Shown here in pieces: positions 2,232-50,109 of a DNA stretch of 64,000 nucleotides. The notes beneath the pieces were generated by a model, which did no database searches, had not been told where the DNA came from, and saw only the letters and a list, made by a program, of their open reading frames with translations. The first letter of the stretch is position 1. Each line of letters begins with the position of its first letter. Made by a program: the position numbers and the translations under genes. Origin of the DNA: a virus; the IMG/VR virus record IMGVR_UViG_3300017971_000207, positions 32,001 to 96,000 of that record; one strand, given 5' to 3'.

Positions 2232-5200
2232 TCAGAAAACGCCGTCTGAGCCCCAGCCTGAGCCACCACGGCCCCATCCAGGCGAGCCCATACCGCCACC
2301 CAAGATCGGTGGGAGCACGTTCGGCTGCTGCCCGACCGGAAGCTGGGCCGCCGGTGGATAAAAGCGACCACTGTCGACGTGCCGGCCCGATAGACGACGC
2401 GCCGCGGCTGCGTGCTGCTGCTCCTCCATCCAGACGTCGGCCGAGGCCATCGCGCCGCGGAGCACAGGGAGCGGCTGCGTGGCCTGATGCTGCGACAGAG
2501 TGTAGATACAGCCCGCCAGGGCATCGCTCGTATCCTTAGAGCCCTTCTTGGGATGATCGACGCGCTGGCGCTTTGCGTCCAGCTCCAGCTCCCGCAGCTC
2601 TTTGAACACCGTAGGGTAACGATAGATGTTAATCCGATCCTCATAAAAAGCCGTCTTGAGCGCCTCGTACGGGTCCATCTTCGTGTCGACCGAGAGATGC
2701 TCCGCCGCATACCCCTTCTGCTTCAGCTGCTGTAACGCGTCGATCGACTGCCATGTATCCTGAGTAACCAGGGTGATAATGAAACCGTGAGCACTAAGCT
2801 CATAGACGAGGCGCCGCAGGTCGCCGAGCACAATCTCGTCCCCCACTGGAGGGACGATGCGCAGAATAACATCGACAAAGTAGATCGGCTGCCGCTCCTG
2901 GAATACCTCCCCGTCCTCCGCACGGCGCAGTACGTCCTTCCAGCCGCTGATATGAGCCATACAGAAGCCCACCGAATCCTTACGATAGGCAGGGTCGATG
3001 TGGATGTGCCGCGCCGCCTTGGGGTTGACAATCGGCGTCAGGGACTCGTGAGTGTAGCCCGAGAAGTCCCGCATCTGCGTCTTACGTACGAGGTTTTCCC
3101 AGATGAACGTCCCCGGCTTGGAGGGGTCGTATACCTCCACGCTGAAGGGATGCTGCCGCGTGTCGTCAAAGACAAGCTTCTCGCGACGCTGAACAAAGGG
3201 GCTAACTGCAACGGTCGACACCCCCGCGATATCTCTTATGCTGCCTTCAAGGTCACGCTCGAAGTCCGACTTGAAGTCGACGGGGACCGCTACCAACGTG
3301 ACGCCGTCAGGCACCCCGTCCCGCTCCAACCTGCTCTCCTCCCCCTCGTCCAGGATACGCGAGGGTATCTGCTCATTACCGCACAGCACATAGAAGCGCT
3401 CGGGGCTAAAGTGGTCCGCGGGCTTTGAATCCCACAGCGCGTAATCTCGGACCATCACCCGCGGGTCCTCCTTAGCTTCCCGAATGCGCCGCGCCGTGAA
3501 GTCATCCGCGGTCTTCTTTGACGAAACGAGGAAGATCTTCCCGAGCACACGGCCGCCCCGGCCGAAGCGGGATTTCATGCGGCGCTTGAGACCGTTGTAG
3601 ATCATCTCCGCGTGGTCCACAGCCCCCATCCGTGGGTCTATCTTGCGCCCCTTGCTAAGGAAGTTGCTGTTGTGAACGAGCACCCCGTCCCCTATGAAGA
3701 CCTCACATCCTGGGACGCAAATGTCGTAGGTAGGGAGCATTCCCAGCCCTCTCTTGGACACGACGCGGGCCACAGTAAACGCTCGTCCCATACCTCGTAT
3801 ACCCACCCCTGACGAGCGCAATACGCCCGTACCGCTCCCATCTTCGCCTTCTCCTTGGGGTTGGATATGTAGCCTCTGGGCTTCACCTCGACGACCAGCG
3901 TGCGGCCGTCGCTCAGCTCGACCACGTAATCCGGCACAGTGTTGCGTCGCTTGTCCTCCCAAAGGTACGGCACCGACAGCTTCTCGTAACGGTAAGCGGC
4001 TACATCCGAACGCCCCTCCAATATCTCCACCGCTCGAAGCTCCCACAGCGAACGAAAGCCCAGCAAACCCGCCTTCGTCGTCTCGACACGGCCTAGATAC
4101 CTCCAATCTCCCTTCTTCAGGCGCCAGACGCTTGACGCCGATATCTTGGCCCGTGTCTCCTCCGAATGCGTGTAGTCCCGAGTGCGGTTGTATTCGATCA
4201 AACGCCGCTTGAACGCTTCCGTATGCATAGGTTTGCCCCGCCGCGCCTCTGACATTTTGCGTCGCGCCTCCGCCGAGGGGCGCCTCCCAGTCGCAGCCTC
4301 TCGCAACCGCTGCTTGTGCTCCTCTGACAGAGGCTTGCCGTAGTTGGGGTTGTCCTCCCCCACCATTGGCGGCGGTGGTCGCAAGTTGCTGTCTCCAGCG
4401 GCCCAACGCTCCTTCATCGCCCGCGACACTTTGGAACGCGCCTCGTCCGACATCACCTTCCCTCGGTTTCCCTCTCCTATCTTGCGCTTGGTCTCCTCCG
4501 TGTGCTTCCAACCAGTCCTCTTCCTCCGCGCCTCCGCCATCTTGCGCTTTGCTTCCGCCGTATGCTTGCGCCCATGAAACGGGTTCTTTGAGCCCGTCCG
4601 CTGCTTGGCTATCTCCGATAAGCGTCTCTTTTGATCCTCCGAAAGCTTCTGACCTTTCCTCGGCATATGTGACAACCTCCTCACCCGGAAGTATATCACG
4701 CATTAACTTGAAGCCTAGAACCCCGTCACGGCCTAGCACAGCCACCGGATGCCTCCACGACGCGCGCAGACGTTGCCCCCCGTCAAGCTCTACCTCAAAG
4801 CACTCCTGGACCGTCGAACGCTTGATATACGCATCAGCCTCCACTGGGCAGCCCCCCTCTACCGACAGCAACCTAAAGGGCAACCGCAGCGGCCCACAAG
4901 ACTCATAAAGAGCCTCCGCAGTGGCCACCCGACCCCCTGGAAGCGACACCAAGGTATCAGCGCACACGCACTCATCCACTAAGGCCCCGAGGGTGTTCAA
5001 ACCCAATGCGGAGGTGTCCGTGGTGGCCCGAGCTGCCAGCCACACGTTGTTGGGGAACCTGAACTCCTTCCGCGTAGCCTTGTACGGGAAGTGCTCCGCA
5101 AAGTAAGGGCTAGCTTTGAGCTTCGTCGCAATGTTCTCAAAGGCGACCTTCATCGCCAGGCCCTCATTGACGCTCAAGCACACGATCGAGATGTCGGTGT

Positions 5201-5642
5201 CCGGCGCCAGCCCAAGAGAGGCGTGAGGGTCGCGGAGGCAGGATAGCTCGTAGAGCATACGGCAGACTGCTACGGACGCTGAAAAGGTCTTTCCCCCTCC
5301 GATCGCCCCCGTAAAGATGACCTCTTCGTAGTCGCCCCCCTCAAAGAGCTCCTCCATGTCCGAGAGCCATCTGGGATACAGCACGCTGCAGGTGTTGCCG
5401 AGGTAGTAGTCATCCTTGACGAAGGTCGCGATATCCACGGGAGGATGCTTGAACTCGGCCTCGCTCACGATATCGATTAGGGGGCGGTCGCCCTCGCTAC
5501 GCTCCTCCTCGACCTCCGTCAACAGCACCATCAAGGCTGCGCGCTCATCCGGGCTTAGCGCTGCTAGCTCCTGCCGTAGGTCGGCCTCGTCCTCCTCAGC
5601 CGTACGCTTGCTGAAGATCCGACCACCGCGGTTTACGAGCAC
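2232..5642 (-). CDS. terL: Terminase large subunit with one intein (about 702 aa after splicing)
   Basis: Walker A GAIGGGKT, Walker B LVDE|S split by the intein, RNase H-like nuclease motifs HIHIDPA and VDHPKKGSKDTSDALAG. Confidence 0.93.
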   Translation of the reverse strand: MLVNRGGRIFSKRTAEEDEADLRQELAALSPDERAALMVLLTEVEEERSEGDRPLIDIVSEAEFKHPPVDIATFVKDDYYLGNTCSVLYPRWLSDMEELFEGGDYEEVIFTGAIGGGKTFSASVAVCRMLYELSCLRDPHASLGLAPDTDISIVCLSVNEGLAMKVAFENIATKLKASPYFAEHFPYKATRKEFRFPNNVWLAARATTDTSALGLNTLGALVDECVCADTLVSLPGGRVATAEALYESCGPLRLPFRLLSVEGGCPVEADAYIKRSTVQECFEVELDGGQRLRASWRHPVAVLGRDGVLGFKLMRDILPGEEVVTYAEERSEAFGGSKETLIGDSQAADGLKEPVSWAQAYGGSKAQDGGGAEEEDWLEAHGGDQAQDRRGKPREGDVGRGAFQSVAGDEGALGRWRQQLATTAANGGGGQPQLRQASVRGAQAAVARGCDWEAPLGGGATQNVRGAAGQTYAYGSVQAAFDRIQPHSGLHAFGGDTGQDIGVKRLAPEEGRLEVSRPCRDDEGGFAGLSFAVGASSGGDIGGAFGCSRLPLREAVGAVPLGGQATQHCAGLRGRAERRPHAGRRGEAQRLHIQPQGEGEDGSGTGVLRSSGVGIRGMGRAFTVARVVSKRGLGMLPTYDICVPGCEVFIGDGVLVHNSNFLSKGRKIDPRMGAVDHAEMIYNGLKRRMKSRFGRGGRVLGKIFLVSSKKTADDFTARRIREAKEDPRVMVRDYALWDSKPADHFSPERFYVLCGNEQIPSRILDEGEESRLERDGVPDGVTLVAVPVDFKSDFERDLEGSIRDIAGVSTVAVSPFVQRREKLVFDDTRQHPFSVEVYDPSKPGTFIWENLVRKTQMRDFSGYTHESLTPIVNPKAARHIHIDPAYRKDSVGFCMAHISGWKDVLRRAEDGEVFQERQPIYFVDVILRIVPPVGDEIVLGDLRRLVYELSAHGFIITLVTQDTWQSIDALQQLKQKGYAAEHLSVDTKMDPYEALKTAFYEDRINIYRYPTVFKELRELELDAKRQRVDHPKKGSKDTSDALAGCIYTLSQHQATQPLPVLRGAMASADVWMEEQQHAAAARRLSGRHVDSGRFYPPAAQLPVGQQPNVLPPILGGGMGSPGWGRGGSGWGSDGVF
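3669..4970 (-). mobile_element. TerL intein (434 aa), no in-frame endonuclease
   Basis: LVDE|CVCADTLV, ASWRHPV, TYDICVPG...VLVHN|S. The central ~300 aa are low-complexity G/A/R/Q sequence. Confidence 0.93.
3692..4666 (-). CDS. NUMOD3-repeat plus TnsA-like PD-(D/E)XK endonuclease nested in the +1 frame of the TerL intein
   Basis: GAGGAGG SD 9 nt before ATG 4666. Repeats such as KHTAEAKRKMAEA, KHTEETKRKIGE, HSEETRAKIS. Nuclease motifs FRSLWE, PDYVVE, VEVKP. Confidence 0.88.
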   Translation of the reverse strand: MPRKGQKLSEDQKRRLSEIAKQRTGSKNPFHGRKHTAEAKRKMAEARRKRTGWKHTEETKRKIGEGNRGKVMSDEARSKVSRAMKERWAAGDSNLRPPPPMVGEDNPNYGKPLSEEHKQRLREAATGRRPSAEARRKMSEARRGKPMHTEAFKRRLIEYNRTRDYTHSEETRAKISASSVWRLKKGDWRYLGRVETTKAGLLGFRSLWELRAVEILEGRSDVAAYRYEKLSVPYLWEDKRRNTVPDYVVELSDGRTLVVEVKPRGYISNPKEKAKMGAVRAYCARQGWVYEVWDERLLWPASCPREGWECSLPTTFASQDVRSS

Positions 5643-6346
5643 GACGCCTCCGAAGGCTCCGAGTCCACAACCTCGGCCTTGGCCTCAATAACCTCGGGCT
5701 CATCCGCTACACGGGCGAGCTTGCTCGCAAGCCCCAACAGCTTGCGGCGCTTCTCCGGGTTGGCGAGCACCTTAGCTACCTTGGGATCCCCTAGCCGGTC
5801 CTCCACGTGGGCAGTGATGTGGGCCTCGACATCAATCTTCCCCAGCTGCCGCTCATTGAGCCCCAGGTCCATCTTAAGCTGCGCGATGCTTGTCAGGATC
5901 TCGCGGGCCGCCCGTATCTCCTGCGTCATCGACGGGAATAGCTTGTTGATGGTCTTCTCGTTCTCGTACTCAATGCCTATCCGCTCCATCTGGACGGCAT
6001 AAAGCAACCAAAGCTCGTCGAGCTCATCTAGCCCCTCCGCGACACGCAGCGCTGCCTGCTCAAAGCAGAGCGGCATACGCCCCTTGATGAGCTGCGCAGA
6101 GGGAATCGTCGTCCGATAGCGACGCAGCATCGACACCAACCCCTCGCGGCTGGCGTCGGTGTATTCGTGGCGCTCCTCCTGAATGAACTCCGCTATCTTC
6201 CGGTCGCTCCACCCATCAAGGAACAGCTGATGCATCTCATCAAAGCACTTGAGCGCACGGAGCTTCGGGAAGTTGGTAGCGCGCCTGGTCGGCTTAATCT
6301 GAAAAGCCGCTGGCCGACGCTTGCGGCCGTTCTTCTTAGCAGTCAC
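5633..6346 (-). CDS. Putative terminase small subunit
   Basis: Overlaps the terL start; HTH-like GWSDRKIAEFI followed by helical region. Called mainly from position. Confidence 0.6.
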   Translation of the reverse strand: MTAKKNGRKRRPAAFQIKPTRRATNFPKLRALKCFDEMHQLFLDGWSDRKIAEFIQEERHEYTDASREGLVSMLRRYRTTIPSAQLIKGRMPLCFEQAALRVAEGLDELDELWLLYAVQMERIGIEYENEKTINKLFPSMTQEIRAAREILTSIAQLKMDLGLNERQLGKIDVEAHITAHVEDRLGDPKVAKVLANPEKRRKLLGLASKLARVADEPEVIEAKAEVVDSEPSEASCS

Positions 6347-6400
6347 GCCTCCAGCTTATCACGTTCAAACGCGATAGCCTAACCGCGCGAGATCGTTAGG

Positions 6401-6429
6401 TGCCTCGGGCGGGAGTCGAACCCACACCC
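6401..6429 (-). pseudogene. Orphan 3' half of a tRNA (T arm plus acceptor strand CCGAGGC-A)
   Basis: GTGGG TTCGACT CCCGC CCGAGGC A; acceptor strand is exactly complementary to GCCTCGG at 7026..7020. Confidence 0.8.
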
Positions 6430-6439
6430 GACCAATCAG

Positions 6440-6524
6440 TGCCCAAGCTGGGAATCGAACCCAGACGCCTCTACGAGACAACGGGTTTTAAACCCGTCCC
6501 GACTACCAATTACGGCACTTGGGC
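6440..6524 (-). tRNA. tRNA-Leu(TAA), long variable arm
   Basis: Acceptor GCCCAAG/CTTGGGC, anticodon arm ACGGG TTTAAAA CCCGT, T arm CTGGG TTCGATT CCCAG. Confidence 0.92.
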
Positions 6525-6953
6525 TAGAAACTGCGCGCGAGGACGAGCCCCGCAAGAATAAACCTGCCTTCTCCTACTCCACTTACCAGAGCAAGACTTG
6601 CTACAAAATGGCCCCGCCTTACCCTGCTTCCTATTCGAGCGGACCACACGTGCCGGTTTAGTTCCTTGTCCCCCACACTCAGGACAAGCAAAAACCACAA
6701 GCTCCTCGGACCTCGCATGCTCTCGCGCGTGGTCCCCACGAGAGATAACCTCCAGATTACCCAACGCATTGTTGGCTCTGTTTCCATCCCTGTGATGAAC
6801 ACACTCCCAACTCTCCAGCTTACGGCCCAGATGCGCCTCCATAACCTCCCGATGCTCTAGAACACTACGCTTAGTACCATCCGACAATCTCTCGACCCTC
6901 ATTCGGTACCCCTTCATGTTATACCAACCAGACCTCCACGCAACTTCAACCAT
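6510..6953 (-). CDS. Free-standing HNH endonuclease with C-terminal Cys (Zn-binding) region; start may be ATG 6917
   Basis: EHREVMEAHLGRKL...VHHRDGNRANNALGNL...H; CPEC and FCSKSC motifs. Confidence 0.9.
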   Translation of the reverse strand: MVEVAWRSGWYNMKGYRMRVERLSDGTKRSVLEHREVMEAHLGRKLESWECVHHRDGNRANNALGNLEVISRGDHAREHARSEELVVFACPECGGQGTKPARVVRSNRKQGKAGPFCSKSCSGKWSRRRQVYSCGARPRAQFLAQVP

Positions 6954-6991
6954 AACGATGGTTTAACACTGTCTCTACCCACAGACCACTA

Positions 6992-7026
6992 GAACCTGCC
7001 GCCTCTACCAGCTGGGCTACCGAGGC
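6992..7026 (-). pseudogene. Orphan 5' half of a tRNA (acceptor strand, D arm, 5' anticodon stem)
   Basis: GCCTCGG TA GCCCAGCTGGTAGAGGC G GCAGG TTC; same D-arm pattern as the neighbouring Leu tRNAs; no complementary CCTGC downstream. Confidence 0.8.
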
Positions 7027-7033
7027 TCACAGG

Positions 7034-7108
7034 TGCCCGAGAGAGGATTCGAACCTCCAACCTCGTCGTCCTAAGCGACGCGCCTCTACCTGGTTGGGCT
7101 ACTCGGGC
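7034..7108 (-). tRNA. tRNA-Leu(TAG), short variable loop
   Basis: Acceptor GCCCGAG/CTCGGGC, anticodon arm CGTCG CTTAGGA CGACG, GGTTCGAATCC T loop. Confidence 0.92.
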
Positions 7109-7111
7109 TAG

Positions 7112-7186
7112 TGGTCAGAGGGGGATTCGAACCCCCAACCTTCGGCCCCTCAAGCCGACGCCTCTGCCTAGTTGGGCTACCTGACC
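7112..7186 (-). tRNA. tRNA-Leu(GAG), short variable loop
   Basis: Acceptor GGTCAGG/TCTGACC, anticodon arm TCGGC TTGAGGG GCCGA, T arm GGGGG TTCGAAT CCCCC. Confidence 0.92.
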
Positions 7187-7300
7187 GATACACATGTCTG
7201 CGCCCGTCCACCACCTCCCGGCGGGACGGGCCGTCAAAGCAACAGGTGTAGTCGGCGAGACATCACCGCCTAGACTGCCACAGAAGCCCATCTATGACAA

Positions 7301-7540
7301 CTACTCAGGAACGACCACGTGGTCGCCGCCCCCAACCTCTGGGAAGTACGCTTCATAGCCAGTCGGAGTAGGTGCAGATCTAACCACGTAAGGCATCCCA
7401 CAGCCACCGCAATGAGACAGCTCGCGCGTCTGCCCACAGCCAGGCACCGCCACACGCCCTCGGCAATGAGGACAGTAGATGTCGATCTTAGCACAGCAGC
7501 CCATCCGCTCAACCGCCAGCACCTCGACAACCCGGCCCAT
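7301..7540 (-). CDS. Small Zn-ribbon protein
   Basis: CPHC...CGGC; abuts the upstream ORF. Confidence 0.65.
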   Translation of the reverse strand: MGRVVEVLAVERMGCCAKIDIYCPHCRGRVAVPGCGQTRELSHCGGCGMPYVVRSAPTPTGYEAYFPEVGGGDHVVVPE

Positions 7541-7747
7541 CTAACCGTCCTCCAGATCACGACGCCGCCCATCATCCAGCTTGCGGGCCTCCGCAAGGAG
7601 AAAGCGCTTGCGGTCCTCCTTGCTCATGCTCCGGGTCAGACCAAACAGGTCCGTCACCACCCCCAAGCACCACTGATAGCTCGGCTTGCCCGGCAGGTTG
7701 CGCTGCACATGCCTGGCGTACGCCTTCAAAGGATGACCCTTACTCAT
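7541..7747 (-). CDS. Hypothetical protein
   Basis: GGAGGT SD; tight gene packing. Confidence 0.65.
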   Translation of the reverse strand: MSKGHPLKAYARHVQRNLPGKPSYQWCLGVVTDLFGLTRSMSKEDRKRFLLAEARKLDDGRRRDLEDG

Positions 7748-7774
7748 CTCACCTCCCCAACAAAGCTCCAGCAG

Positions 7775-8717: not shown

Positions 8718-8723
8718 AACACG

Positions 8724-8939: not shown

Positions 8940-8942
8940 AGC

Positions 8943-11076: not shown

Positions 11077-14000
11077 TCAATGAGCTGCCCATGACCTGCC
11101 AGTATCTCCCTCAGCGACGCACGGAACTGATCGCATCATCGGCTGAATGCCCTCAATCATCGCCTGCTCCACCTCCAGCTTCACCTGCGCCACGAGCTCC
11201 TCGTCATCGTCACACTCGACCACGATCTCGTCGTGCACCATGTGAACCATCTTGGCCCGAGAGCCGAAGCGCTTCAGGCGGAAGTACACGTTGCGTAGGG
11301 AGCGCTTGAGGCCGTCGGCCCCCGAGCCTTGGATCGGGGTGTTCCCTGTTATGAACACATGCCCACTACGCCGAGCCACGAAGAAGGTATTAGGAACAAT
11401 TGGGCACCATATCCCGAAAACACCCTTGAGCTGCCTCACATGCTTCTTAAGCACCTGCGCCTTGTCGCGGTTGAGCACAGTAACCTGCCAGTGCTCCGTC
11501 CCCTTGGGAACATTCTTAAGCTTGGGCGACCTCGGCCTGTACTTCCGCATATCGCGCTTCTTGATGGAGCCCACGTAACCGCAAAGCGTGCAGAGAATCT
11601 GGAAAACTTCTGCTCCCTCTCGGGAACGGCTGACAAAGGCCGTCTTATCGCTACGCCACCCATCCCCACCGATCATGGTTTGGAGCAGTAGACGACACTG
11701 CCGAGCCGTAAGCAGATTAAGAAGGTCCATGGTCAAAACACGGCCGGGGCAGAGCTGCACCAAAACCTCATTCAGAGGGTGCCGAAAGTACCACATACGC
11801 CCCCCCGCTTCCCCATTCTCGCTCTTCGAGTACCTCATCCCCAATCTACCCAGAAGCGCCTCAATACAAGCCACCTTATAAGGGTTAGCCCGCACACTCT
11901 GATAGAGCTTCAAGGACACCCCACTAGGCTTAGGACCACGCTTTCCGGGACGGTCGTAGACCCTACGGGTCTTCTGAATACCGCCGTCCGTCAACCACCA
12001 ACCAGCAAGCTCCACAAAGTCGTCCGACAGGAGGCTACTCTCGGGCCCTTCGTACCGACCGGTGCGATGGATGCGATCGTCACCATGACGCGAGAGTGTT
12101 GATGTCCGTCGCTCCATGTCCTTTCGGGCGCCCTTGTTGTAGACAAGCCAACGATGGTCCGCTGTGGACACCGCATGAAACGACTTTGACTTGAACTCCG
12201 TAAGCTCCCTCTCCACAGGCTCAAACACCCTTAAGTCCGTAGGAGCCTGCCACTCTAAGGCACCTGTTTTTGGGTTCTTGGTCAGAATCTCGTCGCCCAG
12301 AGCAAGATCCGGCCCTCTGACCCACCCCCGGCGTGTGAGCGCCTCCGTTTCAAAGTCTAGGCAGTTGAAGTACTCATTGCGCGCCGTCTCGGGGTCGAGG
12401 TAGCGCCGACGGCCCCACAGGGTGCGGGCATAGGGGACACGCTTCGCATCACGCAGAGAGCGCTCCTGCCACGCGCGCACGCGCGGGTAGCCGTCAAAGT
12501 AACGCTTGATGAACTTGTTGGCCTGCGCCTCTGTGATCGTCACCCCGTAGTTAGCCTGGGAGTACACGACCAGCTTCGCAGCTCCTAGCCCGTAGATGAG
12601 CCCGAAGTTGACCGGCTTCGCCGCCTGGCGCTGCGCCTTGGTCACCTCATCGTAGGGAACTCCCGCGACGATGCTAGCCGTCCGACGGTGCGCATCCTCC
12701 CCCCGAAGGTAGATACCAATAAGCACAGGGTCCTGCGTCACCTCCGCAGCAAGACGGAGCTCTATCTGTGAGTTATGACTAACAAAGCCGTCGCTGATAT
12801 AGGTCACGGGACCAGGGACCGACAGGTCATAGACATCCTCCTCACCATCAAGCTCTATCGAGTCCACCGCATCGAAGAACGTCCCGTCCTCCACCGTCCG
12901 GCTCAACCCCAGCTCCCGATAAACCTCCGGGTGCTCCTCGCGCAGCTTCACAGCCACCAGAAAGCTGACAGACCGCCCCAGAGACGCCGTGTTGTTGAGC
13001 AATCTCCGTACCTCCCCCTCCAGCCTCAGCTCCCTAACACGCTCCTGCATATTAGGCACAGAGCCCACCGTCGGAGATACGGGACCACGCCCTATCAAGC
13101 CCGACAGCTTCCCCTGCTTGCGCCACGAGAAGAACCCCACAGTCTCCACAAACCTAGAGAGGAACAACCGGGGGACACGCAGCGACCAGCCCACATAACG
13201 ACGCCCCTCCCCATGCCGCTCCTTGCGCCGAGTAGACAACACCCCCAGAGCCAGGAGCAGCTGTTGGACCTCAACAATAAGACGCCTGCGGGAGGAGACC
13301 AGCTTCACGTGGTCCCCCCCAGCACTACCGTCCGCCTCAAAGAGGCCCCGCAAAAAGGCGCCCACCACACGCGGCGGAGAGGACCAAAGAAACCCAGGCA
13401 CAGCCCCCTTTGAAACGCCTAAAGCTACAAACCAGTCGCGAAGCTGCTTGCGATTGACGTGCGTCTCAATGACGCCACGATACTCCTTGACATGTAGATC
13501 ACGAAGCCCGAACAGCTCCTCACACAGCCCCAGCAGACGCTCATGGACCGCCGGGTCCTTAGCGTTTACCACCCACCGAAGATAGTTGGACCCTAGATTC
13601 CCGTCCCCCACAAAGTAACCAACAAAGAAAGCCAAGTCCTCAGAGACCTCCCCAGGAACACGAACCTCCTTGCTGTTGACGCCACCAGAAGGCTTAGGCG
13701 GCAGCACAACCTTCGACGAAGCCTCCGACAAACCCCGGCCGGATTGCACAGCCACGTAGTCCGACGGCCCTATCTCATGTAGACGCTTCCAAACATAGGC
13801 TCCCTCACGGTCAAGGACTCTAATACGGTGAAGAGACGTAGCACGCAGCTCGTAGCCAAGCTTCGTCCGAATCCGATAGACAGACTGGACCCCTTTAGAG
13901 ATACGGTCGCTCACTCGATGCTTCGTCCCGTCCTCCACCAAGACCTCAGCACCTACGGCAACATTCTCCACCGGCACCAAACCCTCCGATGTCGCCACGC

Positions 14001-15951
14001 GCGTCCCCCCCACGACGCAATAGTCGGTAACGATTAGTATTCGGCCATCGCCCGGTCTGAAGCAATCACGGTACTCAAAAGCGCGAGGAATCTGCTGCAG
14101 GTTTGGCGATCGGCTATTATGAGAGAAGACCCCACAAGCCTCATAGCTCTCATCTACGGCGACGGTAATGTCATAGACCTCACGACTTCCGCAAGCGTAG
14201 ACTTCCTCAATTGTAACGTCTTGCTGTCCTTCAGCTGCCTGTAGTGAATAGCCTTGTGGCCTGAGTGAGTCACCAGCGCGAGGTTGTGCAGATCGTTGTT
14301 CTTCGGATCCCCGTCTATGTGATGGACCGTCAAGTGCTCGGGAATCTCCCCCAAGCCCAACGCTTCGGCCATCACCACGCGATGAACGAATCGCCTCTTG
14401 CCATTGTGCAGGCAAGTCAGATACCCATAGCCGTCGTCGCACAACCCCTTCCAGTTGTGGTGTTGCTCCCCCTTCTTGCCCCACATAGGATTCTGCTCCC
14501 CCGTCTTTGATGCCGAGTAACGCAGAGCTGCTAACGCCTTGCGCTCGGCCTCCGGCATACACGATCGTACCACATGCGACACGTTGTGAAACGTAGTCCC
14601 CAGCCTCTCGGCAACCTCTGTAAGCTTCAACATCTCCGGGCTCCGGTACAGTTCCAGAACATCCCGACGATTCTTCGCGTCCCCTGTCCAAGTCTTTGAT
14701 ACACTCATCTACCATACTCCGAACAGACTTCCACTCACCAGTAGAGAGTAGCAATCTGTGGGAGCCCGTGCACTTCAAAACCTCCCCGTTACTAAAACGT
14801 ACCGAATATATCCTCTCGGGTTTAAGCCTCCAATGGTTGATGACGGGCTGCCAACGCTCCTTGTGGGTCCATACCTGGTCACCGACAGAGACATCCTCCA
14901 TCCGCTTCATACCCTCAGTGGTCCGGATAAGTGTCTCCCCCACTACGCAGCTGTATCGGCCAGCTCCAGTTAGCGGCCAGAAGTCCGTATGGATACGACC
15001 CGTCTTCGGATTGATGTTCTCCAGGTAGTCAGGACCGAAGGAGTCGACACGCTTCGATATCTTGCGGTACTCGATGAAGAGCGGGAAGACCTTATGCTTT
15101 GTCGCGATCATCGCAATGAGGTCTGACGCCGTGCTCGTCAGACCAAGATTAAGCGGCTTACCGTTCGGCTTGGTCAGCGAGTTAAAGCTCGCGAGCACCT
15201 GCTGCGGCGAGCGGTAGTTGAAGCCCGAGGGAATGCCCGGCAGGCTCAGCAGCCCCTTCGGATGCGGCAGCATCACATCCAGCTTATTGCGCAGCTCCTC
15301 TAGCTTACGCTTGTTGGCCTCCGCTACCTTGAGCCACATCTCGCTATCCAACCGAAAGCCGTTCAGCTCTATCTCCGCCTCGGCGAGAGGGGCCCCGAAC
15401 TCGATCAAGGCTATACGGTTGAGCCCTGCCTTGGCCAGCTTCGGCTTGAGCGCGTCCCGCAGCTCTAGGAGGTACGTCACATCCTCCGCCGCATAGTCTA
15501 GCTGCTCTTCCCCAAGCTCGGCCGCCGACCAGTCCGACCCTCCCATGTCCCCTGTCCCTGGCTCTACCTTGAGCTCTCGGGCATACAGGTCATAAAGGTT
15601 GTTCCCCAAAAAGCGGCCATTGTGGATAATCGCAGAGGCCCGAAAGGTATCGAACACAGGCCACAATTCAATACCGTGGTGAAAGAGTAGCCACTTCTGC
15701 TCAAACTTCGCGTTCTGGATCACCTTAATGGCGGAGCCCTTCAGCGCCTCCACCAACGGCCCCATAGTGCACGTCTTGAACAGGTCAATGACGTAGATAC
15801 CCTGCCCTGTGTTGAGCTGCAGCAGCCGTATCTTCCCGTCGCGCGGGTCCAAGGAGGTGGTCTCAATGTCGAGACCCACCACCTTGGCGTTGTCGACCTC
15901 GTTGGCTATGGCCCCTAACCGCTCCGCAGAGGTGACGTATTCATAGCTCAT
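11077..15951 (-). CDS. polA: Family A DNA polymerase (3'-5' exonuclease plus polymerase) with three inteins (about 589 aa after splicing)
   Basis: LDIETT, QNAKFE, YAAED, GRYS|SRSPNLQQIP, DY|SQIELR, AKPVNFGLIYG, N|TPIQGSGADG, MVHDEIV. Confidence 0.96.
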   Translation of the reverse strand: MSYEYVTSAERLGAIANEVDNAKVVGLDIETTSLDPRDGKIRLLQLNTGQGIYVIDLFKTCTMGPLVEALKGSAIKVIQNAKFEQKWLLFHHGIELWPVFDTFRASAIIHNGRFLGNNLYDLYARELKVEPGTGDMGGSDWSAAELGEEQLDYAAEDVTYLLELRDALKPKLAKAGLNRIALIEFGAPLAEAEIELNGFRLDSEMWLKVAEANKRKLEELRNKLDVMLPHPKGLLSLPGIPSGFNYRSPQQVLASFNSLTKPNGKPLNLGLTSTASDLIAMIATKHKVFPLFIEYRKISKRVDSFGPDYLENINPKTGRIHTDFWPLTGAGRYSCVVGETLIRTTEGMKRMEDVSVGDQVWTHKERWQPVINHWRLKPERIYSVRFSNGEVLKCTGSHRLLLSTGEWKSVRSMVDECIKDLDRGREESSGCSGTVPEPGDVEAYRGCREAGDYVSQRVACGTIVYAGGRAQGVSSSALLGIKDGGAESYVGQEGGATPQLEGVVRRRLWVSDLPAQWQEAIRSSRGDGRSVGLGGDSRALDGPSHRRGSEEQRSAQPRAGDSLRPQGYSLQAAEGQQDVTIEEVYACGSREVYDITVAVDESYEACGVFSHNSRSPNLQQIPRAFEYRDCFRPGDGRILIVTDYCVVGGTRVATSEGLVPVENVAVGAEVLVEDGTKHRVSDRISKGVQSVYRIRTKLGYELRATSLHRIRVLDREGAYVWKRLHEIGPSDYVAVQSGRGLSEASSKVVLPPKPSGGVNSKEVRVPGEVSEDLAFFVGYFVGDGNLGSNYLRWVVNAKDPAVHERLLGLCEELFGLRDLHVKEYRGVIETHVNRKQLRDWFVALGVSKGAVPGFLWSSPPRVVGAFLRGLFEADGSAGGDHVKLVSSRRRLIVEVQQLLLALGVLSTRRKERHGEGRRYVGWSLRVPRLFLSRFVETVGFFSWRKQGKLSGLIGRGPVSPTVGSVPNMQERVRELRLEGEVRRLLNNTASLGRSVSFLVAVKLREEHPEVYRELGLSRTVEDGTFFDAVDSIELDGEEDVYDLSVPGPVTYISDGFVSHNSQIELRLAAEVTQDPVLIGIYLRGEDAHRRTASIVAGVPYDEVTKAQRQAAKPVNFGLIYGLGAAKLVVYSQANYGVTITEAQANKFIKRYFDGYPRVRAWQERSLRDAKRVPYARTLWGRRRYLDPETARNEYFNCLDFETEALTRRGWVRGPDLALGDEILTKNPKTGALEWQAPTDLRVFEPVERELTEFKSKSFHAVSTADHRWLVYNKGARKDMERRTSTLSRHGDDRIHRTGRYEGPESSLLSDDFVELAGWWLTDGGIQKTRRVYDRPGKRGPKPSGVSLKLYQSVRANPYKVACIEALLGRLGMRYSKSENGEAGGRMWYFRHPLNEVLVQLCPGRVLTMDLLNLLTARQCRLLLQTMIGGDGWRSDKTAFVSRSREGAEVFQILCTLCGYVGSIKKRDMRKYRPRSPKLKNVPKGTEHWQVTVLNRDKAQVLKKHVRQLKGVFGIWCPIVPNTFFVARRSGHVFITGNTPIQGSGADGLKRSLRNVYFRLKRFGSRAKMVHMVHDEIVVECDDDEELVAQVKLEVEQAMIEGIQPMMRSVPCVAEGDTGRSWAAH
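11341..12363 (-). mobile_element. PolA intein 3 (341 aa), LAGLIDADG-type, ends GN
   Basis: FN|CLDFETEALT...LAGWWLTDGG...MIGGDG...FITGN|T. Confidence 0.92.
12772..14019 (-). mobile_element. PolA intein 2 (416 aa), LAGLIDADG
   Basis: DY|CVVGGTRV...FVGYFVGDG...FLRGLFEADG...VSHN|S. Confidence 0.94.
14116..14949 (-). mobile_element. PolA intein 1 (278 aa), no in-frame endonuclease
   Basis: YS|CVVGETLI...CTGSHRL...VYDITV...FSHN|S; low-complexity centre. Confidence 0.93.
14154..14708 (-). CDS. HNH endonuclease (N-terminal HTH-like region) nested in the +1 frame of PolA intein 1
   Basis: GGAG 8 nt before ATG 14708; VHRVVMAEALG...VHHIDGDPKNNDLHNLAL...H...H. Confidence 0.9.
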   Translation of the reverse strand: MSVSKTWTGDAKNRRDVLELYRSPEMLKLTEVAERLGTTFHNVSHVVRSCMPEAERKALAALRYSASKTGEQNPMWGKKGEQHHNWKGLCDDGYGYLTCLHNGKRRFVHRVVMAEALGLGEIPEHLTVHHIDGDPKNNDLHNLALVTHSGHKAIHYRQLKDSKTLQLRKSTLAEVVRSMTLPSP

Positions 15952-41856: not shown

Positions 41857-41858
41857 AG

Positions 41859-44014: not shown

Positions 44015-44052
44015 GTCGTTTGTCCTTTAGTTGCAAACGCACCTATACCTTC

Positions 44053-44159: not shown

Positions 44160-44223
44160 CTTGGTGGGGTACAGGGAATCGAAACCTGTAGGATCATCAA
44201 GATACCTCCATCCCCGTCGGCGG

Positions 44224-44670
44224 TCAAGAACAGGCCCGGCACCTCCTCCCTAGAGCAACCTTTACGGCGTCTAGCTCGCCCGCTAAGGCCCAGAGCTGCT
44301 CTCGGGCAGGGTCGGTAGCCTCCAGCTCCTGCGCGGCCCTGTAGACGTCATCTCGGGCGTCCGAGAGCAACGCGAAGAGCAGGTCTCGCTGGAAGGGGGT
44401 AATATCGGGCCCCTCCGGTGGAGGCTTTGGAGCGACGAGCTTGATGGTGTGGGCACCGTCAAAGAAGAGCTCGCTGGCGACCCGCAGGCAGCGCTCCAGC
44501 TCCTCGGGAGAAAGCTTCATAAAGCGTAGAGCTCGATCAGCCGCCTCTAGGCTGGACACCACCAGCTCGACACCCGGCACAGCTCCGTAAATCTCTAGCT
44601 CGTGCTCTCGCGGGAGCCCCACAGTGTTCGAGAACTGTTGGGCTGGTAGGTTATTGCCTGGGCTGCTCAT
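44224..44670 (-). CDS. Hypothetical protein
   Basis: ATGA overlap with the upstream gene. Confidence 0.65.
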   Translation of the reverse strand: MSSPGNNLPAQQFSNTVGLPREHELEIYGAVPGVELVVSSLEAADRALRFMKLSPEELERCLRVASELFFDGAHTIKLVAPKPPPEGPDITPFQRDLLFALLSDARDDVYRAAQELEATDPAREQLWALAGELDAVKVALGRRCRACS

Positions 44671-45338
44671 AGGTCCTCGAATGGTACGGAGGGGGTGGGA
44701 GGTGGAGCGGGCTTGGGGGCCGCCTTGAAGCAGCTAAGGTGGACGCCGTAGCATTCGACACCGGGGCGCAGCATGACCACCTCCTGCGGGAGGATGACAC
44801 CACGGCAGACAACACAGGCCCCTGTTTTCTTGGCGCGGCGACTTGCCCAATAGTGTCCATCGTAGTCCCCGCCTCTGGCGTGGTGCTGCCCCTCCACATA
44901 GCGACGGCGCTCGTTTAGGCAGCTTCGGTGGAGATAGATACTTTCAGTAGGAGAGGAGCAGACCGCTATCACCTCTCGGGCGTGATAAGGCTTCAGGCAG
45001 CTGTCACATGCACCACCGACCCCTCGGGCTTGAATGTGCCAGCTGGTTCCCCCAAACCCTAGAGTGACCGTCGGGGAGGTGCCAGGAGGGGGAGAGGCTC
45101 TTGGATGGTTAGGACGCACACGGGCCTCCCAGCCAGCCACGATGTCGTAGAGATCATCAATATCTTCCCCAAGCCCGGTAGGCGCCTGAGCGTTGGGCAG
45201 CCTGACGGTCATGCCGTGCTTGTCCATCAACTGCAGAGCGAGCACGGCGCAGGTCCGCGACTCCTCGGCGCTGTCGGTCACTAAGGAACGGTGAATAAGG
45301 TCATTCACCTTACCCAGGGCCTTCTGCTTATCGCTCAT
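44667..45338 (-). CDS. Hypothetical protein, DUF2786-like N-terminus and two Cys/His motifs
   Basis: KVNDL...AEE...ALQLMDKHG; CDSC...H..C and CVVC...H..C. Confidence 0.55.
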   Translation of the reverse strand: MSDKQKALGKVNDLIHRSLVTDSAEESRTCAVLALQLMDKHGMTVRLPNAQAPTGLGEDIDDLYDIVAGWEARVRPNHPRASPPPGTSPTVTLGFGGTSWHIQARGVGGACDSCLKPYHAREVIAVCSSPTESIYLHRSCLNERRRYVEGQHHARGGDYDGHYWASRRAKKTGACVVCRGVILPQEVVMLRPGVECYGVHLSCFKAAPKPAPPPTPSVPFEDL

Positions 45339-45344
45339 GGACTG

Positions 45345-45659
45345 CTAGTGAGAGTGGCTATGGATCCAGCCACGCCCCTCACATTCTGGGCACTGCTGAA
45401 CCGATGTTAAAGCCCACCGCCCGTCTAGAACCTGGAGAGCCCCCCGTCGACGCAGGCGCTGCAGCGTCCGCGACAGCTCGCGATTGTCCATCCCTAGCTC
45501 TTGGCGCAGCTCCTTACTCCCTTTGGGGCGCAGCCGTAGCGCCCCCTGAATGCTCTGCTCTACCCTCTCTGGGCTAACTACCGCGTGCTCTGTGCCTTGC
45601 TCCTCGCTCGTCTGCTTCTTGCTCATTGCTGCCTCCAATAGGCGACCATGTGGTCGCAC
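45345..45659 (-). CDS. Winged-helix plus Zn-ribbon protein (start probably MSKKQ)
   Basis: KELRQELGMDNRELSRTLQRLRRRG; CPECEGRG. Confidence 0.65.
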   Translation of the reverse strand: MRPHGRLLEAAMSKKQTSEEQGTEHAVVSPERVEQSIQGALRLRPKGSKELRQELGMDNRELSRTLQRLRRRGALQVLDGRWALTSVQQCPECEGRGWIHSHSH

Positions 45660-46136
45660 CTAGAAGAGACCGTCCACCTCATCCCCCACCGGGGTTTCTT
45701 CGGCCTCTGTGATCTTTGCAGGTGTACCCCTCACCCGCATCATAACGGCTGGGGATAGCTGAACGTAATAAACCGGGAGTTCTGCAGGAGCGCCCGTGTG
45801 AGATTCGAAGAGATGGCGGACTGCCCCTCTGAAGCAGCGGCCGCAGTAGGGACCACCGAGCCGTCCTTGGGGGTCGGCACCTACGCCACCGCTCAACCCT
45901 ACCCATAGTAAGCGCTTAGGGTCGAGGGTCCGGCAGGTCTTACAGCGGACGGAGACAACTGGGGCGTTCGTGCGCATAACGCCCCGCATGTCCTGGTAGA
46001 TCGCTGCCACCAGCTCAGGATGAGCCCGCCACTGCTTAAGGTTCACCTTCCCGACCAGCGACCCCAGCCGAACATCGAGCCTCTTCCCACAGTCGTCGCA
46101 TACCCCTTTCGGGCCTGTGTAAAGCGTCTGTGGCAT
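45660..46136 (-). CDS. Cys-rich hypothetical protein
   Basis: Three CxxC motifs; GGAGG SD. Confidence 0.6.
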   Translation of the reverse strand: MPQTLYTGPKGVCDDCGKRLDVRLGSLVGKVNLKQWRAHPELVAAIYQDMRGVMRTNAPVVSVRCKTCRTLDPKRLLWVGLSGGVGADPQGRLGGPYCGRCFRGAVRHLFESHTGAPAELPVYYVQLSPAVMMRVRGTPAKITEAEETPVGDEVDGLF

Positions 46137-46138
46137 TA

Positions 46139-48064
46139 CTACCTCCGGCGCAGGAACTGGATAAAGCTGGACGAGACCAGCTGGACGAGGTCGGAGCCTA
46201 TGCGCTCAGCTCGAACTCGCCGCCAAAAGCGCTGCGGCCCAAACATATAGGACAGCTGAGACGGCTCTAGGTCAAAGCGCGTAGGGAAACCGGGCCCCAT
46301 CCGAGACCCGAGGAGAATGCCAGTAACGCCGATCCCCTGAGCCCGTGCCTGCTGCACCTCTTTGCGAACAAAGCGCATTAGCTGAGGAGTGCCGAACGTC
46401 TTCCCGTCACGCCGTCGATGGGTAGGGAACCCATCAGTGACTATGAAGATATGCTTGACCTCGGTTCCACAGCGCAGCTCCTTAACGGCCAGCCGTATAG
46501 CAACGTGGAGCGGGGTACCACCCCCGGCCCCCTTGTCCCCCATCGAGAGCACAGCATCCTTGTGGGAATCATAGCGGGTGATGGTTATCTGGCCAGGCTC
46601 CTGAGAGGAGAAGCCCCAAACCAGACTCTCTACGAAGGGGAAGCGCAGCGCTCGGTTGAGGATGTTGTAGGCAGAGCGGCACTGAATCGTTTTGCTGTGA
46701 CCCATAGAGCTGGAGCGGTCTAGAAGAAGGATGGACCGAAAGCCTTGCCCCCTAGCCTCCGAGCGAAAGCAAGGGACCGGCACACCTGTTACGTGGCGCT
46801 CCAGATAGGCGCCAACGTCCACCCTCGTCCCGCTCTCCTCTAGCGCCGAGGCACGTCGCCCCAGCACGCGGTAAAACTGGGCCCGCAGGCGCCGAATGGT
46901 TCGGCGTTCGTCGGGGTACACGTTCACCGAACCTTCGCGATCGTGGTCAATGAAGGTGACCTTCGCCATGGCGTCCTTCTGTAGCCACGCATCGCGACGA
47001 ACAACCTGCTTCATCTCCTGCAGGACCTGTGCAATCAGGTCCTGCATGCGGTCCTCAGACCGCGCTAGCTCCGCGTCAAACACATCACCGTCACCAACCG
47101 GAGCACACAGAGCTTTAGAGGCCAGAGCCTGCGACCGCGGAGATGTCCGAGACCGGACATAGCTCGACTCGCGCATCAGGCCCTCCAGGGCCTCCGGAGC
47201 GTCGCCGCTGTCTGCTAGAACTCTTGATAGGGCCTGCGCCCTCTCACGGCCAGAGACGGCCTGCGGGGCCTCGGGGTGCCACGGCTGCTGCTCCCCACTT
47301 TCCGCGCTGGCGCTCTCGTCCTCCTTACCGTCTGATGATCCCTCCTCATTGTCCCCGTCTCCCCTCTGCGGACAGGAGGGAGGGGGCTCGCCGCGGGTCT
47401 CACGGATTATCTGATTCACCAGCTGCACGACCAGCCACTTGCTCACCATCAAGGTGGCAGTAAAGTCGCGACCACACACCTTTCGGAACGCCTCCAGTAT
47501 GTATGGCTCGAAGCAGTCTAGGTCCCCAGGCGCCACGCCCTCTGGGTCCCCGCTCAGGCAGGTTACGTAGGAGAGCAGGCCCTCATGGGCCTCGGGCAAT
47601 ATCTCCGCGACAGCCTCACGATCGAGGTCTCTGATGATATCTCTGCTCCCGGCGTATAGCAGTCCCCACAGGGAGAGCACCCGGCGTCGCTCCAGCTGCG
47701 CGATGATATGTCCTAGCAGCTGGCGAACATCCTCCAAGGCAATGGGGACTCCCAGCTTTTCTCCTACCTTCTGCACCTTCTCGGTGTAGGTCTCCACGAA
47801 GAGGCGGGCGGCTTGAGGGTCGCTCTTGAAAAGAATATGCGCTAACTGCAGCTCAACCAGCCGGTAAAAGCTGGAGTGGAAGAAGGGCGCTCTTATCTCG
47901 TGGCCGTCCGTCCCCGGCACGTCGGCGTGGCGCAGCCACAGCTTGCGTTTGGTAATACCCGCAAACATGTCCACGGTCTTGTAGGCCACTGAGCGGGTGG
48001 TCTCATATGCTCGGAGAGCCTCCCGACGCTCTGGAGATAATTCGGCGGCAGCGTCCGGGGTCAT
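46139..48064 (-). CDS. vWA-domain protein (CobT-like partner of MoxR)
   Basis: MIDAS motif LLLDRSSSMG...GGTP...IVTDG. Confidence 0.88.
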   Translation of the reverse strand: MTPDAAAELSPERREALRAYETTRSVAYKTVDMFAGITKRKLWLRHADVPGTDGHEIRAPFFHSSFYRLVELQLAHILFKSDPQAARLFVETYTEKVQKVGEKLGVPIALEDVRQLLGHIIAQLERRRVLSLWGLLYAGSRDIIRDLDREAVAEILPEAHEGLLSYVTCLSGDPEGVAPGDLDCFEPYILEAFRKVCGRDFTATLMVSKWLVVQLVNQIIRETRGEPPPSCPQRGDGDNEEGSSDGKEDESASAESGEQQPWHPEAPQAVSGRERAQALSRVLADSGDAPEALEGLMRESSYVRSRTSPRSQALASKALCAPVGDGDVFDAELARSEDRMQDLIAQVLQEMKQVVRRDAWLQKDAMAKVTFIDHDREGSVNVYPDERRTIRRLRAQFYRVLGRRASALEESGTRVDVGAYLERHVTGVPVPCFRSEARGQGFRSILLLDRSSSMGHSKTIQCRSAYNILNRALRFPFVESLVWGFSSQEPGQITITRYDSHKDAVLSMGDKGAGGGTPLHVAIRLAVKELRCGTEVKHIFIVTDGFPTHRRRDGKTFGTPQLMRFVRKEVQQARAQGIGVTGILLGSRMGPGFPTRFDLEPSQLSYMFGPQRFWRRVRAERIGSDLVQLVSSSFIQFLRRR

Positions 48065-50109
48065 CTCTTCTTCCCGTTGAGGTCTACCTTGAATATCGAG
48101 GTGATGCGCTCCCGGACCGTGGCTTTGTCTGTCCCCTCGAACTTACCGACGACGATGCGCAGCGCGCGGGTTAGGTCCAGAGCTGCAATATCCTCCAGAA
48201 GCTGCACGACATCACGAGGGCTGAGGGCATAGTCCAAGGAAGCCTGGCGAGTCTCGTGCGCGAGCGTCATAACCTGCTTGACCACCTCTTTTCGAACGCC
48301 CCCGTTGAGCACAGCATCCAAGATCTTCTTCTCGCTGGTGGGATTGGGGTAGTCGACCGAGATAACCCTAAAACGAGACTTCAGATCCTCATTGAGCGCG
48401 TACACGCCGCCGTATACCGCCGTGTTCATTGTCCCGGTAACCCACAGCTCCTTACCGGGCTGCAGCTTAAACACCTTCTGCGCCTCGGGCACCTCCACCC
48501 GGCAACGCCAATCTGCTACCGCGTTAAGGATCTTCTGGCTCTGGGGTGAAAGCGAGTTATGCGTACCAAGCCCGTTGGCAAAGTATGTATGAGTCCCCGT
48601 GAGACCTATCTCTCGTAAGGGTGTTGGGGTCCTGTTGACTACCACTCTTTGTACAGTTACCCATCGAGGAACGTCCTCACCGCCCGACGTATTAGGTCTG
48701 GGCTTTTCAGATCCTCTTCCGATAGTCTCAACACTGTATAGCCCATGCTGGTGTAGGCTGCCGTCTCTGCCTCGCGCTGCTCTTTCGGGTGCCAGTAAGC
48801 CCCATCTACCAGCAGTACCTTCTTTCCCCTGGCAATGAAGTCGGGATTGAGGTGCCTCCCATCGGGGGTCGTCAACCATCTGCTGCCGTCGCCGACATAG
48901 TGAACCGGAAGACCTTCTAGGATGCTCATAGCCTTCCGCTCCAGTGCTGTGGGAAGCTCCGCATTCCACCCCGCATGTACAAACTGTATCTTGGCCTCGG
49001 GGTGCGCCTTCAGGTACGCCTTCCGCTTCGCCGACATATTCTGCCTGTGTGCGGGGTCGGACCATATTCTCTGAGCGCGTTCCGAGGCCAAGGCGCGACC
49101 TTTGGGACTCCGCCAAAACGCTGCGGTGGCTTGGCCACCTCGTGCTGCAGCCTCGCGGAACTCGGGGGACCGACAAACTGCCAAACGTTTGGCCCGCCTC
49201 TCCTCGTCGGCCCACTCTTTCTTCATCTGTCGCCTTTTGGTAGCAGCCATCTTTGCCCGCGTGGTTGGGTCCTCGTGCGGGCGCAAATTTCTCAGGAAGG
49301 CTGACATGCCCTCGCGGTACTCTTTGTCCTTCCACCTTTCGCGCATAGCCCTGGAGCGTTTTGCGCGAGCCTCCGGCGTCCTCGCCTTTGCTTGGACGTC
49401 CGGGCGACGTCCCGGATTGTCTCCGTGCGCCATACGTTCGTGAGCTCTTAAGGCCCGCAGGTCCCTCTTCACGCAGCCGCAAGTTTTGCAGGTGTAAGAT
49501 TCGGTCGCCTTCGCGGATGTCTTCGGCATAGGACCAACCTCGTGCGGTCCAAAAAAGGTGGTTACCGCTAGCAGTTATCCTACGCTCACCACAATCTAGT
49601 GTAAAGGAGGTGTTAGCCCATTCATCTCGGACCTCTACCACCGTCTCGATGCCTTGTTGACCAGAGGGTCCGAAGCTCACCACAGCGTCTCCCACCTGGA
49701 CGCGTTCTATAGGCACTTGGAGACCCGAAGGCAGCATTACGTTGGAGGATGGGTGTATGCAATTGATCTCCTCTAGGCAGAGGATACAGCGGCCAACCTC
49801 ATTGGCCACCTCGAAGGCGTTGGTTATGGGCCCTAGAACAAAAGGGGTCGAGCCCCCTCGGATGATGTGCATCCCCAGCAGATGAGAGCGCCGCACATCC
49901 TCTGAGCAGTCAAAGGTGATGATCGGGCTCCGTACCTTGTTAGCGTAGTGCTGGATGGAGAGTGTTTTCCCTACCCCCTTCGGACCACACACAATTGCGG
50001 GTGCCCGAAAGGCTAGCCCATCATACAGAGGGAGCAGGTCCAGGGCGTCGATGTAGGTAACCTGCTTCGGAGCGAAGCTGTCTGCGGGCAAACTTAGAAT
50101 ATCGCTCAT
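48061..50109 (-). CDS. MoxR/CobS-family AAA+ ATPase with intein (about 280 aa after splicing)
   Basis: GPKGVGKT, LEEIN|S, TMN...YGG...LNEDLKSRF, SPR. Confidence 0.9.
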   Translation of the reverse strand: MSDILSLPADSFAPKQVTYIDALDLLPLYDGLAFRAPAIVCGPKGVGKTLSIQHYANKVRSPIITFDCSEDVRRSHLLGMHIIRGGSTPFVLGPITNAFEVANEVGRCILCLEEINCIHPSSNVMLPSGLQVPIERVQVGDAVVSFGPSGQQGIETVVEVRDEWANTSFTLDCGERRITASGNHLFWTARGWSYAEDIREGDRILHLQNLRLREEGPAGLKSSRTYGARRQSGTSPGRPSKGEDAGGSRKTLQGYARKVEGQRVPRGHVSLPEKFAPARGPNHAGKDGCYQKATDEERVGRRGEAGQTFGSLSVPRVPRGCSTRWPSHRSVLAESQRSRLGLGTRSENMVRPRTQAEYVGEAEGVPEGAPRGQDTVCTCGVECGASHSTGAEGYEHPRRSSGSLCRRRQQMVDDPRWEAPQSRLHCQGKEGTAGRWGLLAPERAARGRDGSLHQHGLYSVETIGRGSEKPRPNTSGGEDVPRWVTVQRVVVNRTPTPLREIGLTGTHTYFANGLGTHNSLSPQSQKILNAVADWRCRVEVPEAQKVFKLQPGKELWVTGTMNTAVYGGVYALNEDLKSRFRVISVDYPNPTSEKKILDAVLNGGVRKEVVKQVMTLAHETRQASLDYALSPRDVVQLLEDIAALDLTRALRIVVGKFEGTDKATVRERITSIFKVDLNGKKR
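48556..49761 (-). mobile_element. MoxR intein (402 aa), no in-frame endonuclease
   Basis: IN|CIHPSSNV...ASGNHLFWT...HTYFANGLGTHN|S; low-complexity centre. Confidence 0.92.
48657..49529 (-). CDS. Vsr/DUF559-like endonuclease with C2H2 finger and basic helical repeats, nested in the +1 frame of the MoxR intein
   Basis: GAGGT 7 nt before ATG 49529; CKTC...H....H; PTALE...NPDF...VDGAYWH...GYTVLRLSE. Confidence 0.88.
   Translation of the reverse strand: MPKTSAKATESYTCKTCGCVKRDLRALRAHERMAHGDNPGRRPDVQAKARTPEARAKRSRAMRERWKDKEYREGMSAFLRNLRPHEDPTTRAKMAATKRRQMKKEWADEERRAKRLAVCRSPEFREAAARGGQATAAFWRSPKGRALASERAQRIWSDPAHRQNMSAKRKAYLKAHPEAKIQFVHAGWNAELPTALERKAMSILEGLPVHYVGDGSRWLTTPDGRHLNPDFIARGKKVLLVDGAYWHPKEQREAETAAYTSMGYTVLRLSEEDLKSPDLIRRAVRTFLDG

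Follow-up and report, generated by a model that had tools for sequence, protein, structure and literature searches.

Hairpins that sequester the ribosome-binding site are known from several phage homing-endonuclease genes, namely I-TevI, I-TevII, I-TevIII and segB of the T-even phages and mobE of Aeh1 (PMC2988022). Out-of-frame intein endonucleases, described only in 2025-2026, are reported to be rare (bioRxiv 10.1101/2025.01.02.630785; 10.64898/2026.09.14.751524; PMC11855218); Shine-Dalgarno (SD) motifs upstream of the out-of-frame nuclease have been noted in dnaX, and the translation of such open reading frames (ORFs) without harm to the host protein has been posed as an explicit question (PMC11855218, section 4.3). 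The present analysis concerns three nuclease ORFs of the latter kind, nested in inteins of a putative TerL (terminase large subunit), a PolA and a MoxR-like host ORF, and the RNA structures over their translation starts, in a 64-kb stretch (hereafter the window) of the 145-kb single-contig virus record IMGVR_UViG_3300017971_000207. Start-site occlusion is modestly enriched in these genes and their relatives as a group (Fisher p ~0.003-0.02), but it is not universal, and individual base pairs are not conserved. We consider it likely to be real in the TerL-nest clade and at the MoxR nest of the window, and the probability that it has a functional role is put at about 0.5.

A preliminary description of the window had drawn hairpins over the starts of all three nested nucleases and, from the T4 precedent, in which homing endonuclease genes are repressed by stems that sequester the ribosome-binding site, had inferred convergent translational repression, possibly relieved by ribosomes in the host frame. 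The precedent holds (PMC2988022), and the generalisation is examined below.

Nuclease genes nested in three inteins

Minus-strand genes occupy the window from position 1 to ~53,000, and the GC content is ~0.60. Three long host ORFs each carry an intein with a nested nuclease, the middle of the intein being low-complexity Gly/Ala/Arg sequence in the host frame and the nuclease lying in the +1 frame. The features concerned are as follows.

2232..5642, minus strand: putative TerL host ORF, with its intein at 3669..4970
3692..4666, minus strand: TerL-nested +1-frame nuclease ORF, with NUMOD3 repeats and a TnsA-like PD-(D/E)xK domain (Pfam)
4676..4680, minus strand: SD GGAGG of the TerL-nested nuclease, read in the host frame as Gly-Glu-Glu-Val codons
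4664..4666, minus strand: ATG of the TerL-nested nuclease, overprinting host codons Tyr-Ala; homologues begin MP(R/A)KG at the aligned position
11077..15951, minus strand: PolA host ORF, a family A DNA polymerase with three inteins, intein 1 at 14116..14949
14154..14708, minus strand: PolA-nested +1-frame HNH_3 nuclease ORF in intein 1, with SD GGAG at 14720..14717 and ATG at 14708..14706
48061..50109, minus strand: AAA_5/MoxR-like host ORF, with its intein at 48556..49761
48657..49529, minus strand: MoxR-nested +1-frame nuclease ORF, with a C2H2-like zinc finger and a weak DUF559/Vsr-like match; SD GAGG at 49541..49538 and ATG at 49529..49527

All three nests have a canonical SD, with spacings to the ATG of 9 nucleotides (nt) for GGAGG in TerL, 8 nt for GGAG in PolA and 8 nt for GAGG in MoxR. 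The inteins are indicated by Hint/Intein_splicing matches for PolA, a weak Intein_splicing match for the TerL intein (E 0.0022) and Cys ... His-Asn/Ser boundaries visible in the sequence. The defining traits of an out-of-frame-nuclease intein are all present, since the splicing blocks lie in the host frame, the nuclease domain lies in another frame and the host frame is open throughout. The TerL label of the host ORF 2232..5642 is putative and comes from a Walker A motif together with a language-model match to terminase clusters; sequence searches of Pfam, PHROGs and the PDB gave no confirmation of it.

Relatives, with protein identities of 51-58%, comprise L001, L025, L027 and L029 for TerL, L016-L019 for PolA and L015 for MoxR. 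A nested ORF within a long host ORF was found in eight of eight relative lineages (four TerL, three PolA and one MoxR); for PolA the nesting was read from ORF lists in L016 and L018 and from the length of the host ORF in L019, and the +1 offset was computed in the TerL relatives only. The SD is placed identically in the TerL-nest relatives L001, L025 and L029. The preservation of the nesting at such identities argues that the three nested ORFs, as predicted from sequence, are real nuclease genes.

The C-terminal ~25 residues of the TerL-nested nuclease (3692..3760, minus strand; alignment columns 296-325; consensus LWPASCPRExWxCSLPTT) are the best-conserved part of its family. They overlap the C-terminal splicing blocks of the host frame, and their conservation probably reflects dual coding and not a nuclease motif. 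Of the remaining PolA inteins, intein 2 has an in-frame LAGLIDADG_3 domain, and intein 3 was judged by translation only.

Probable occlusion of nested translation starts

Folding was compared with dinucleotide shuffles, and the background comprised 130 called gene starts and sampled internal sites from the whole genome. The z-scores of the gene starts have a mean of -0.19 (standard deviation 1.09), and 1.5% of them reach -2.6; an AUG accessibility of 0.02 or less is found at 3-4% of the background sites genome-wide. Accessibility of the SD and AUG, and the lower of the two, min(SD, AUG), were further examined by a recoding test. Upstream of the nested ATG only the host frame codes; therefore, synonymous host codons were resampled upstream of -15, the rest being kept fixed, and accessibility was recomputed. 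The test is calibrated, with p roughly uniform at 66 decoy out-of-frame SD+ATG sites.

Two structures carry the evidence for occlusion in the window.

4669..4699, minus strand: TerL-nest hairpin of 12 bp with a single bulge, a 6-nt loop and the SD in the 3' arm
49526..49585, minus strand: larger MoxR-nest structure, with an outer stem pairing 49585..49573 with 49539..49526 and an inner hairpin at 49568..49544

The TerL stem, GTGATA-T-ACTTCC / GGGTGA / GGAGGT-TGTCAC (4699..4669), pairs the SD GGAGG (4680..4676) and is both the minimum-free-energy and the centroid structure in contexts of 61, 100 and 200 nt. Its stability of -18 kcal/mol (z -2.64 to -2.71) is equalled by 2 of 200 shuffles in one comparison and 0.7% in another. 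The SD is unpaired with a probability of 0.12; a value this low is seen at 1.5% of the 130 gene starts and, for the 105 internal decoy SD+ATG sites, at 1.9%.

At the MoxR nest, the outer stem of the larger structure covers the last two bases of the SD, the spacer and the AUG, whose unpaired probability of 0.00 is in the lowest 2.3% of gene starts. The structure has a stability of -26.4 kcal/mol; its z-score is -2.28 when 75 nt are folded and -1.64 with 111 nt, and its recoding p is 0.005. The stem hinges on codon choice, with CGT-AGG-ATA-ACT opposite TCC-TAT-GC and the rarer codons AGG and ATA in the 5' arm. The protein homologue P0117 begins MPKTSEK at the aligned ATG, like the MoxR-nested nuclease of the window.

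Block B of the MoxR intein contains a T6 run (49559..49564, minus strand; His-Leu-Phe-Trp codons) 30 nt before the nested ATG. In L015 (2923-3030) a T4 run is kept, a strong AAGGAGG lies just downstream, the aligned ATG is missing and the open stretch of the nuclease frame begins only with a GTG at 2923.

For min(SD, AUG) accessibility in -60..+40, the percentiles among gene starts are 0.108 for TerL, 0.215 for PolA and 0.023 for MoxR, and the recoding p-values of the window (0.16, 0.072 and 0.005, respectively) give a Fisher combined p of ~0.003. Among the TerL-nest relatives, L001 has a weak start codon, TTG, at the aligned position and a hairpin of -26.1 kcal/mol (z -4.7; none of 300 shuffles as stable; recoding p 0.013), in which the same upstream CUUCC element pairs the start codon and not the SD, and L027 buries the AUG (recoding p 0.027). 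The TerL-nest family, consisting of five lineages including the window, has a combined p of ~0.014-0.017. The base pairs of the window's TerL hairpin are not conserved in the relatives, and the occlusion in L001 and L027 is non-homologous. Both the buried part of the start and its pairing partner vary among the TerL-nest relatives, and it is low accessibility and not one particular helix that appears to be selected.

A mechanism may be proposed on this basis. Each nested nuclease would initiate independently at its own SD and ATG, overprinted on codons of the N-terminal splicing domain of the intein. On the long host mRNA, local structure would hide the SD at the TerL nest and the AUG at the MoxR nest. 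Internal out-of-frame initiation would thereby stay at a low level, with little nuclease produced and no interference from 30S binding with the translation of the essential host protein. Such translational repression would follow the same logic as the stems of T4 I-TevI, segB and Aeh1 mobE. The stems might be opened by host-frame ribosomes covering the 5' arm, which is geometrically possible, or, at the TerL nest, be bypassed in short transcripts made from a -10-like element considered below.

Weighing of the alternative explanations

The main rival is that the stems are a by-product of GC-rich, dual-constrained coding with no regulatory role, and that their enrichment reflects few lineages and metrics chosen post hoc; we regard this explanation as possible, if rather doubtful. 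It draws upon the composition of the overlap itself, as the purine-rich SD and the Lys/Arg codons adjoin the Leu-Pro codons of a conserved Hint-domain motif, and upon two of the three stems that had been described.

14702..14750, minus strand: PolA-nest stem as first drawn (14750..14739 with 14714..14702), at background
49531..49550, minus strand: 5-bp MoxR-nest hairpin GGACC/GGTCC as first drawn, at background

All three stems of the preliminary description are present in the sequence where it had placed them. The suggested comparison with shuffled controls, however, separates them, in that the TerL hairpin is above background (z -2.64; 2 of 200 shuffles), the PolA stem is at background (z -0.33; 69 of 200 shuffles fold equally well) and so is the 5-bp MoxR hairpin (z +0.13; 109 of 200 as stable), which is replaced by the larger structure. 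The claim that hairpins cover all three starts is thus borne out at TerL alone among the stems as drawn. Of the proposed convergent repression, a modest enrichment of occlusion in the group (Fisher ~0.003) survives, whereas 'all three' and 'convergent' were overstated, as PolA gives no signal in the stem as drawn or in its four relatives, the MoxR signal comes from a structure that had not been described, TerL is largely predisposed to its stem and three of the phage's four free-standing HNH genes are open.

A number of results, the PolA stem among them, weigh against a functional role. In 100 nt the PolA stem is no longer the minimum-free-energy structure, other pairings replace it and the AUG is 87% unpaired; with a recoding p of 0.072 (min(SD, AUG)), the PolA nest is without an occluding element beyond background, and its four relatives show recoding p-values of 0.19-0.69 and no shared structure. 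For TerL, the recoding p is 0.10 for the SD alone and 0.16 for min(SD, AUG), the null being low already with a mean SD accessibility of 0.29. This excess shrinks because the Leu-Pro-Gly codons of the intein naturally pair with GGAGG; much of the TerL stem comes with the amino-acid sequence of the intein, and the nest is largely predisposed to it. Among the TerL relatives, L025 shows no occlusion (recoding p 0.86) and L029 a weak trend that is not significant (z -1.4 to -1.7; recoding p 0.29), and covariation of the TerL hairpin across four collinear lineages gave no signal in a test without power. The larger MoxR structure is not kept in L015, the sole relative whose DNA was compared and one in which the aligned ATG is also missing. 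At all three nested starts the folding energy of the whole -60..+40 segment lies close to the genome median, and ~10% of ordinary gene starts have a min(SD, AUG) of 0.12 or less. Further, the accessibility metric was picked after the data had been seen, and independent lineages are few; metagenome scans for further lineages yielded no locus and then five, mostly duplicates, genome scans gave nothing useful and a phage collection contained no DNA match.

The by-product explanation does not, however, account readily for the recoding p-values of MoxR (0.005), L001 (0.013) and L027 (0.027) on a calibrated test, for the L001 hairpin, which no shuffle equals, or for the combined p of ~0.003-0.02.

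The free-standing HNH genes of the phage provide a mixed comparison. The HNH_3 gene at 57086..57592 has an SD GGAG (57607..57604) that is paired to a CUUC upstream of it within an 11-bp stem (57600..57626, minus strand), and its SD is unpaired with a probability of 0.04-0.06, below all three nested genes. The three others are open or intermediate and not occluded, which again favours the by-product explanation.

Window 6510..6953, minus strand: further HNH-type ORF
Genome 4971..5784, plus strand: further HNH-type ORF
Genome 6867..7490, minus strand: further HNH-type ORF

These three have HNH_3 or weak HNH matches, and the start calls of two of them are uncertain because they have no SD. A rule that every homing nuclease gene of this phage is occluded was considered and rejected, as occlusion is confined to one of the four free-standing HNH genes, two of the other three having uncertain start calls.

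A further alternative, which we hold to be unlikely, places a T4-style promoter inside the TerL hairpin. An extended -10 element in the 5' arm would give rise to transcripts from ~4683 that lack this arm and are translatable, the mRNA reading through from TerL remaining blocked.

4690..4698, minus strand: TGATATACT, extended -10-like element within the 5' arm of the TerL hairpin, ending 24 nt before the ATG

Sites matching TGnTATAAT with at most one mismatch number just eight in 290 kb (both strands), and one of them is TGATATACT, close upstream of the nested ATG. The 15-nt block with TGATATACT is identical in L001, the flanks being only ~60% identical, and at the same codon position L029 has TATAAT and L027 has TGGTAGTAT. 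The phage has sigma-70-type promoters of the form TTGACA-N17-TATnnT. A start ~7 nt downstream of the -10 element would drop the 5' arm, and a modelled transcript from 4684, with the 5' arm removed, presents the SD in a loop. The layout itself is documented for I-TevI, I-TevII, I-TevIII, segB and mobE (PMC2988022). Against this, there is no -35 element, scans around the TerL nest found neither a complete sigma-70 promoter nor a terminator, L025 is without the motif and most of the other seven sites in the genome are not upstream of genes. The probability of the -10 motif given the amino acids and codon usage is 0.064 in the window, 0.012 in L001, 0.38 in L027 and 0.48 in L029, such that the motif is unsurprising in the latter two and moderately unexpected in the former two, which share ancestry. 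No -10-type promoter candidate was found at the PolA or the MoxR nest. The complete scheme, in which the TerL-nested nuclease would be under an I-TevI-style switch combining a stem-locked SD with an extended -10 element overprinted on Asp-Ile-Leu codons and leading to a short translatable transcript, is improbable as read from the sequence. If true, it would give out-of-frame intein homing endonucleases their first described regulatory mechanism, with one 30-nt stretch in triple use as intein codons, promoter and RNA stem.

Promoter-like elements elsewhere in the genome are recorded here for completeness. Sigma-70-type promoters (TTGACA, ~17 nt, TATnnT) lie 45-115 nt upstream of many minus-strand genes, as at window positions 50713, 37865, 33494, 16963 and 8752 (minus strand), and are dense at 98-126 kb of the genome; TTGACA is the hexamer most enriched upstream of genes (4.8-fold). 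TATGGG(G) is ~4-fold enriched within 100 nt upstream of minus-strand genes of the structural region, e.g. at window positions 50150 (41 nt before the start of the MoxR-like gene) and 1116, and may represent a middle or late promoter element specific to the phage.

The weakest alternative, in which the nucleases are reached by a +1 shift from the host frame, e.g. at the T-run of MoxR block B, with the stems as stimulators and no internal initiation, is judged very unlikely, since the T6 run (49564..49559) followed by the inner hairpin and the T4 run of L015 with its missing aligned ATG are outweighed by a TAA in the +1 frame of the window five codons before the T-run region with a canonical SD and ATG after it, by the start of P0117 at the aligned ATG, by the intein codons that account for the T-run, and by the lack of a slippery site in TerL and PolA together with an SD at 8-9 nt in all three nests.

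Relation to described systems

Occlusion with a functional role, as the preferred reading, resembles the T4-type hairpins in that the mRNA of an essential host gene carries a selfish nuclease gene, whose AUG is preceded at ~8 nt by a consensus SD that a predicted stem would pair; at the TerL nest only, a promoter-like element in the 5' arm could in addition give unblocked transcripts. It differs in that the nuclease ORF lies in the +1 frame of a translated intein, whereas those of T4 lie in an intron loop or between genes. As the nuclease ORF is within the translated coding region of the intein, host ribosomes pass through the stem. Further, a stem is predicted here for one or at most two of the three genes, and the promoter candidate is sigma-70-like and not of the T4 late type, whose motif TATAAATA is absent from the genome.

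In MS2, at coat/replicase and coat/lysis, RNA structure masks an internal start until ribosomes translating the upstream or overlapping frame melt it. The nested nucleases would share the buried internal start, and their geometry is at most compatible with activation from the host frame.

The nested genes share with the out-of-frame intein endonucleases a nuclease in another frame of the intein middle and an open host frame. They differ in their families (NUMOD3 with TnsA-like, HNH_3, and zinc finger with Vsr/DUF559-like) and in the occurrence of three such inteins in one phage. Moreover, no start-site RNA structure or regulation is reported in the two preprints or in PMC11855218 (term-level search; one mention of a protein hairpin, in PMC11855218).

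The window thus presents three such genes with a canonical SD and ATG, two of them with testable RNA structures over the start. The evidence for occlusion is modest and of a statistical kind, and the principle is not new. If occlusion has the proposed role, the rule of translationally quiet selfish nucleases known from T4 would apply to a further, new type of gene arrangement; the class of mechanism is already known from the T-even phages, and the novelty lies in meeting it on nuclease genes that are placed out of frame within inteins.

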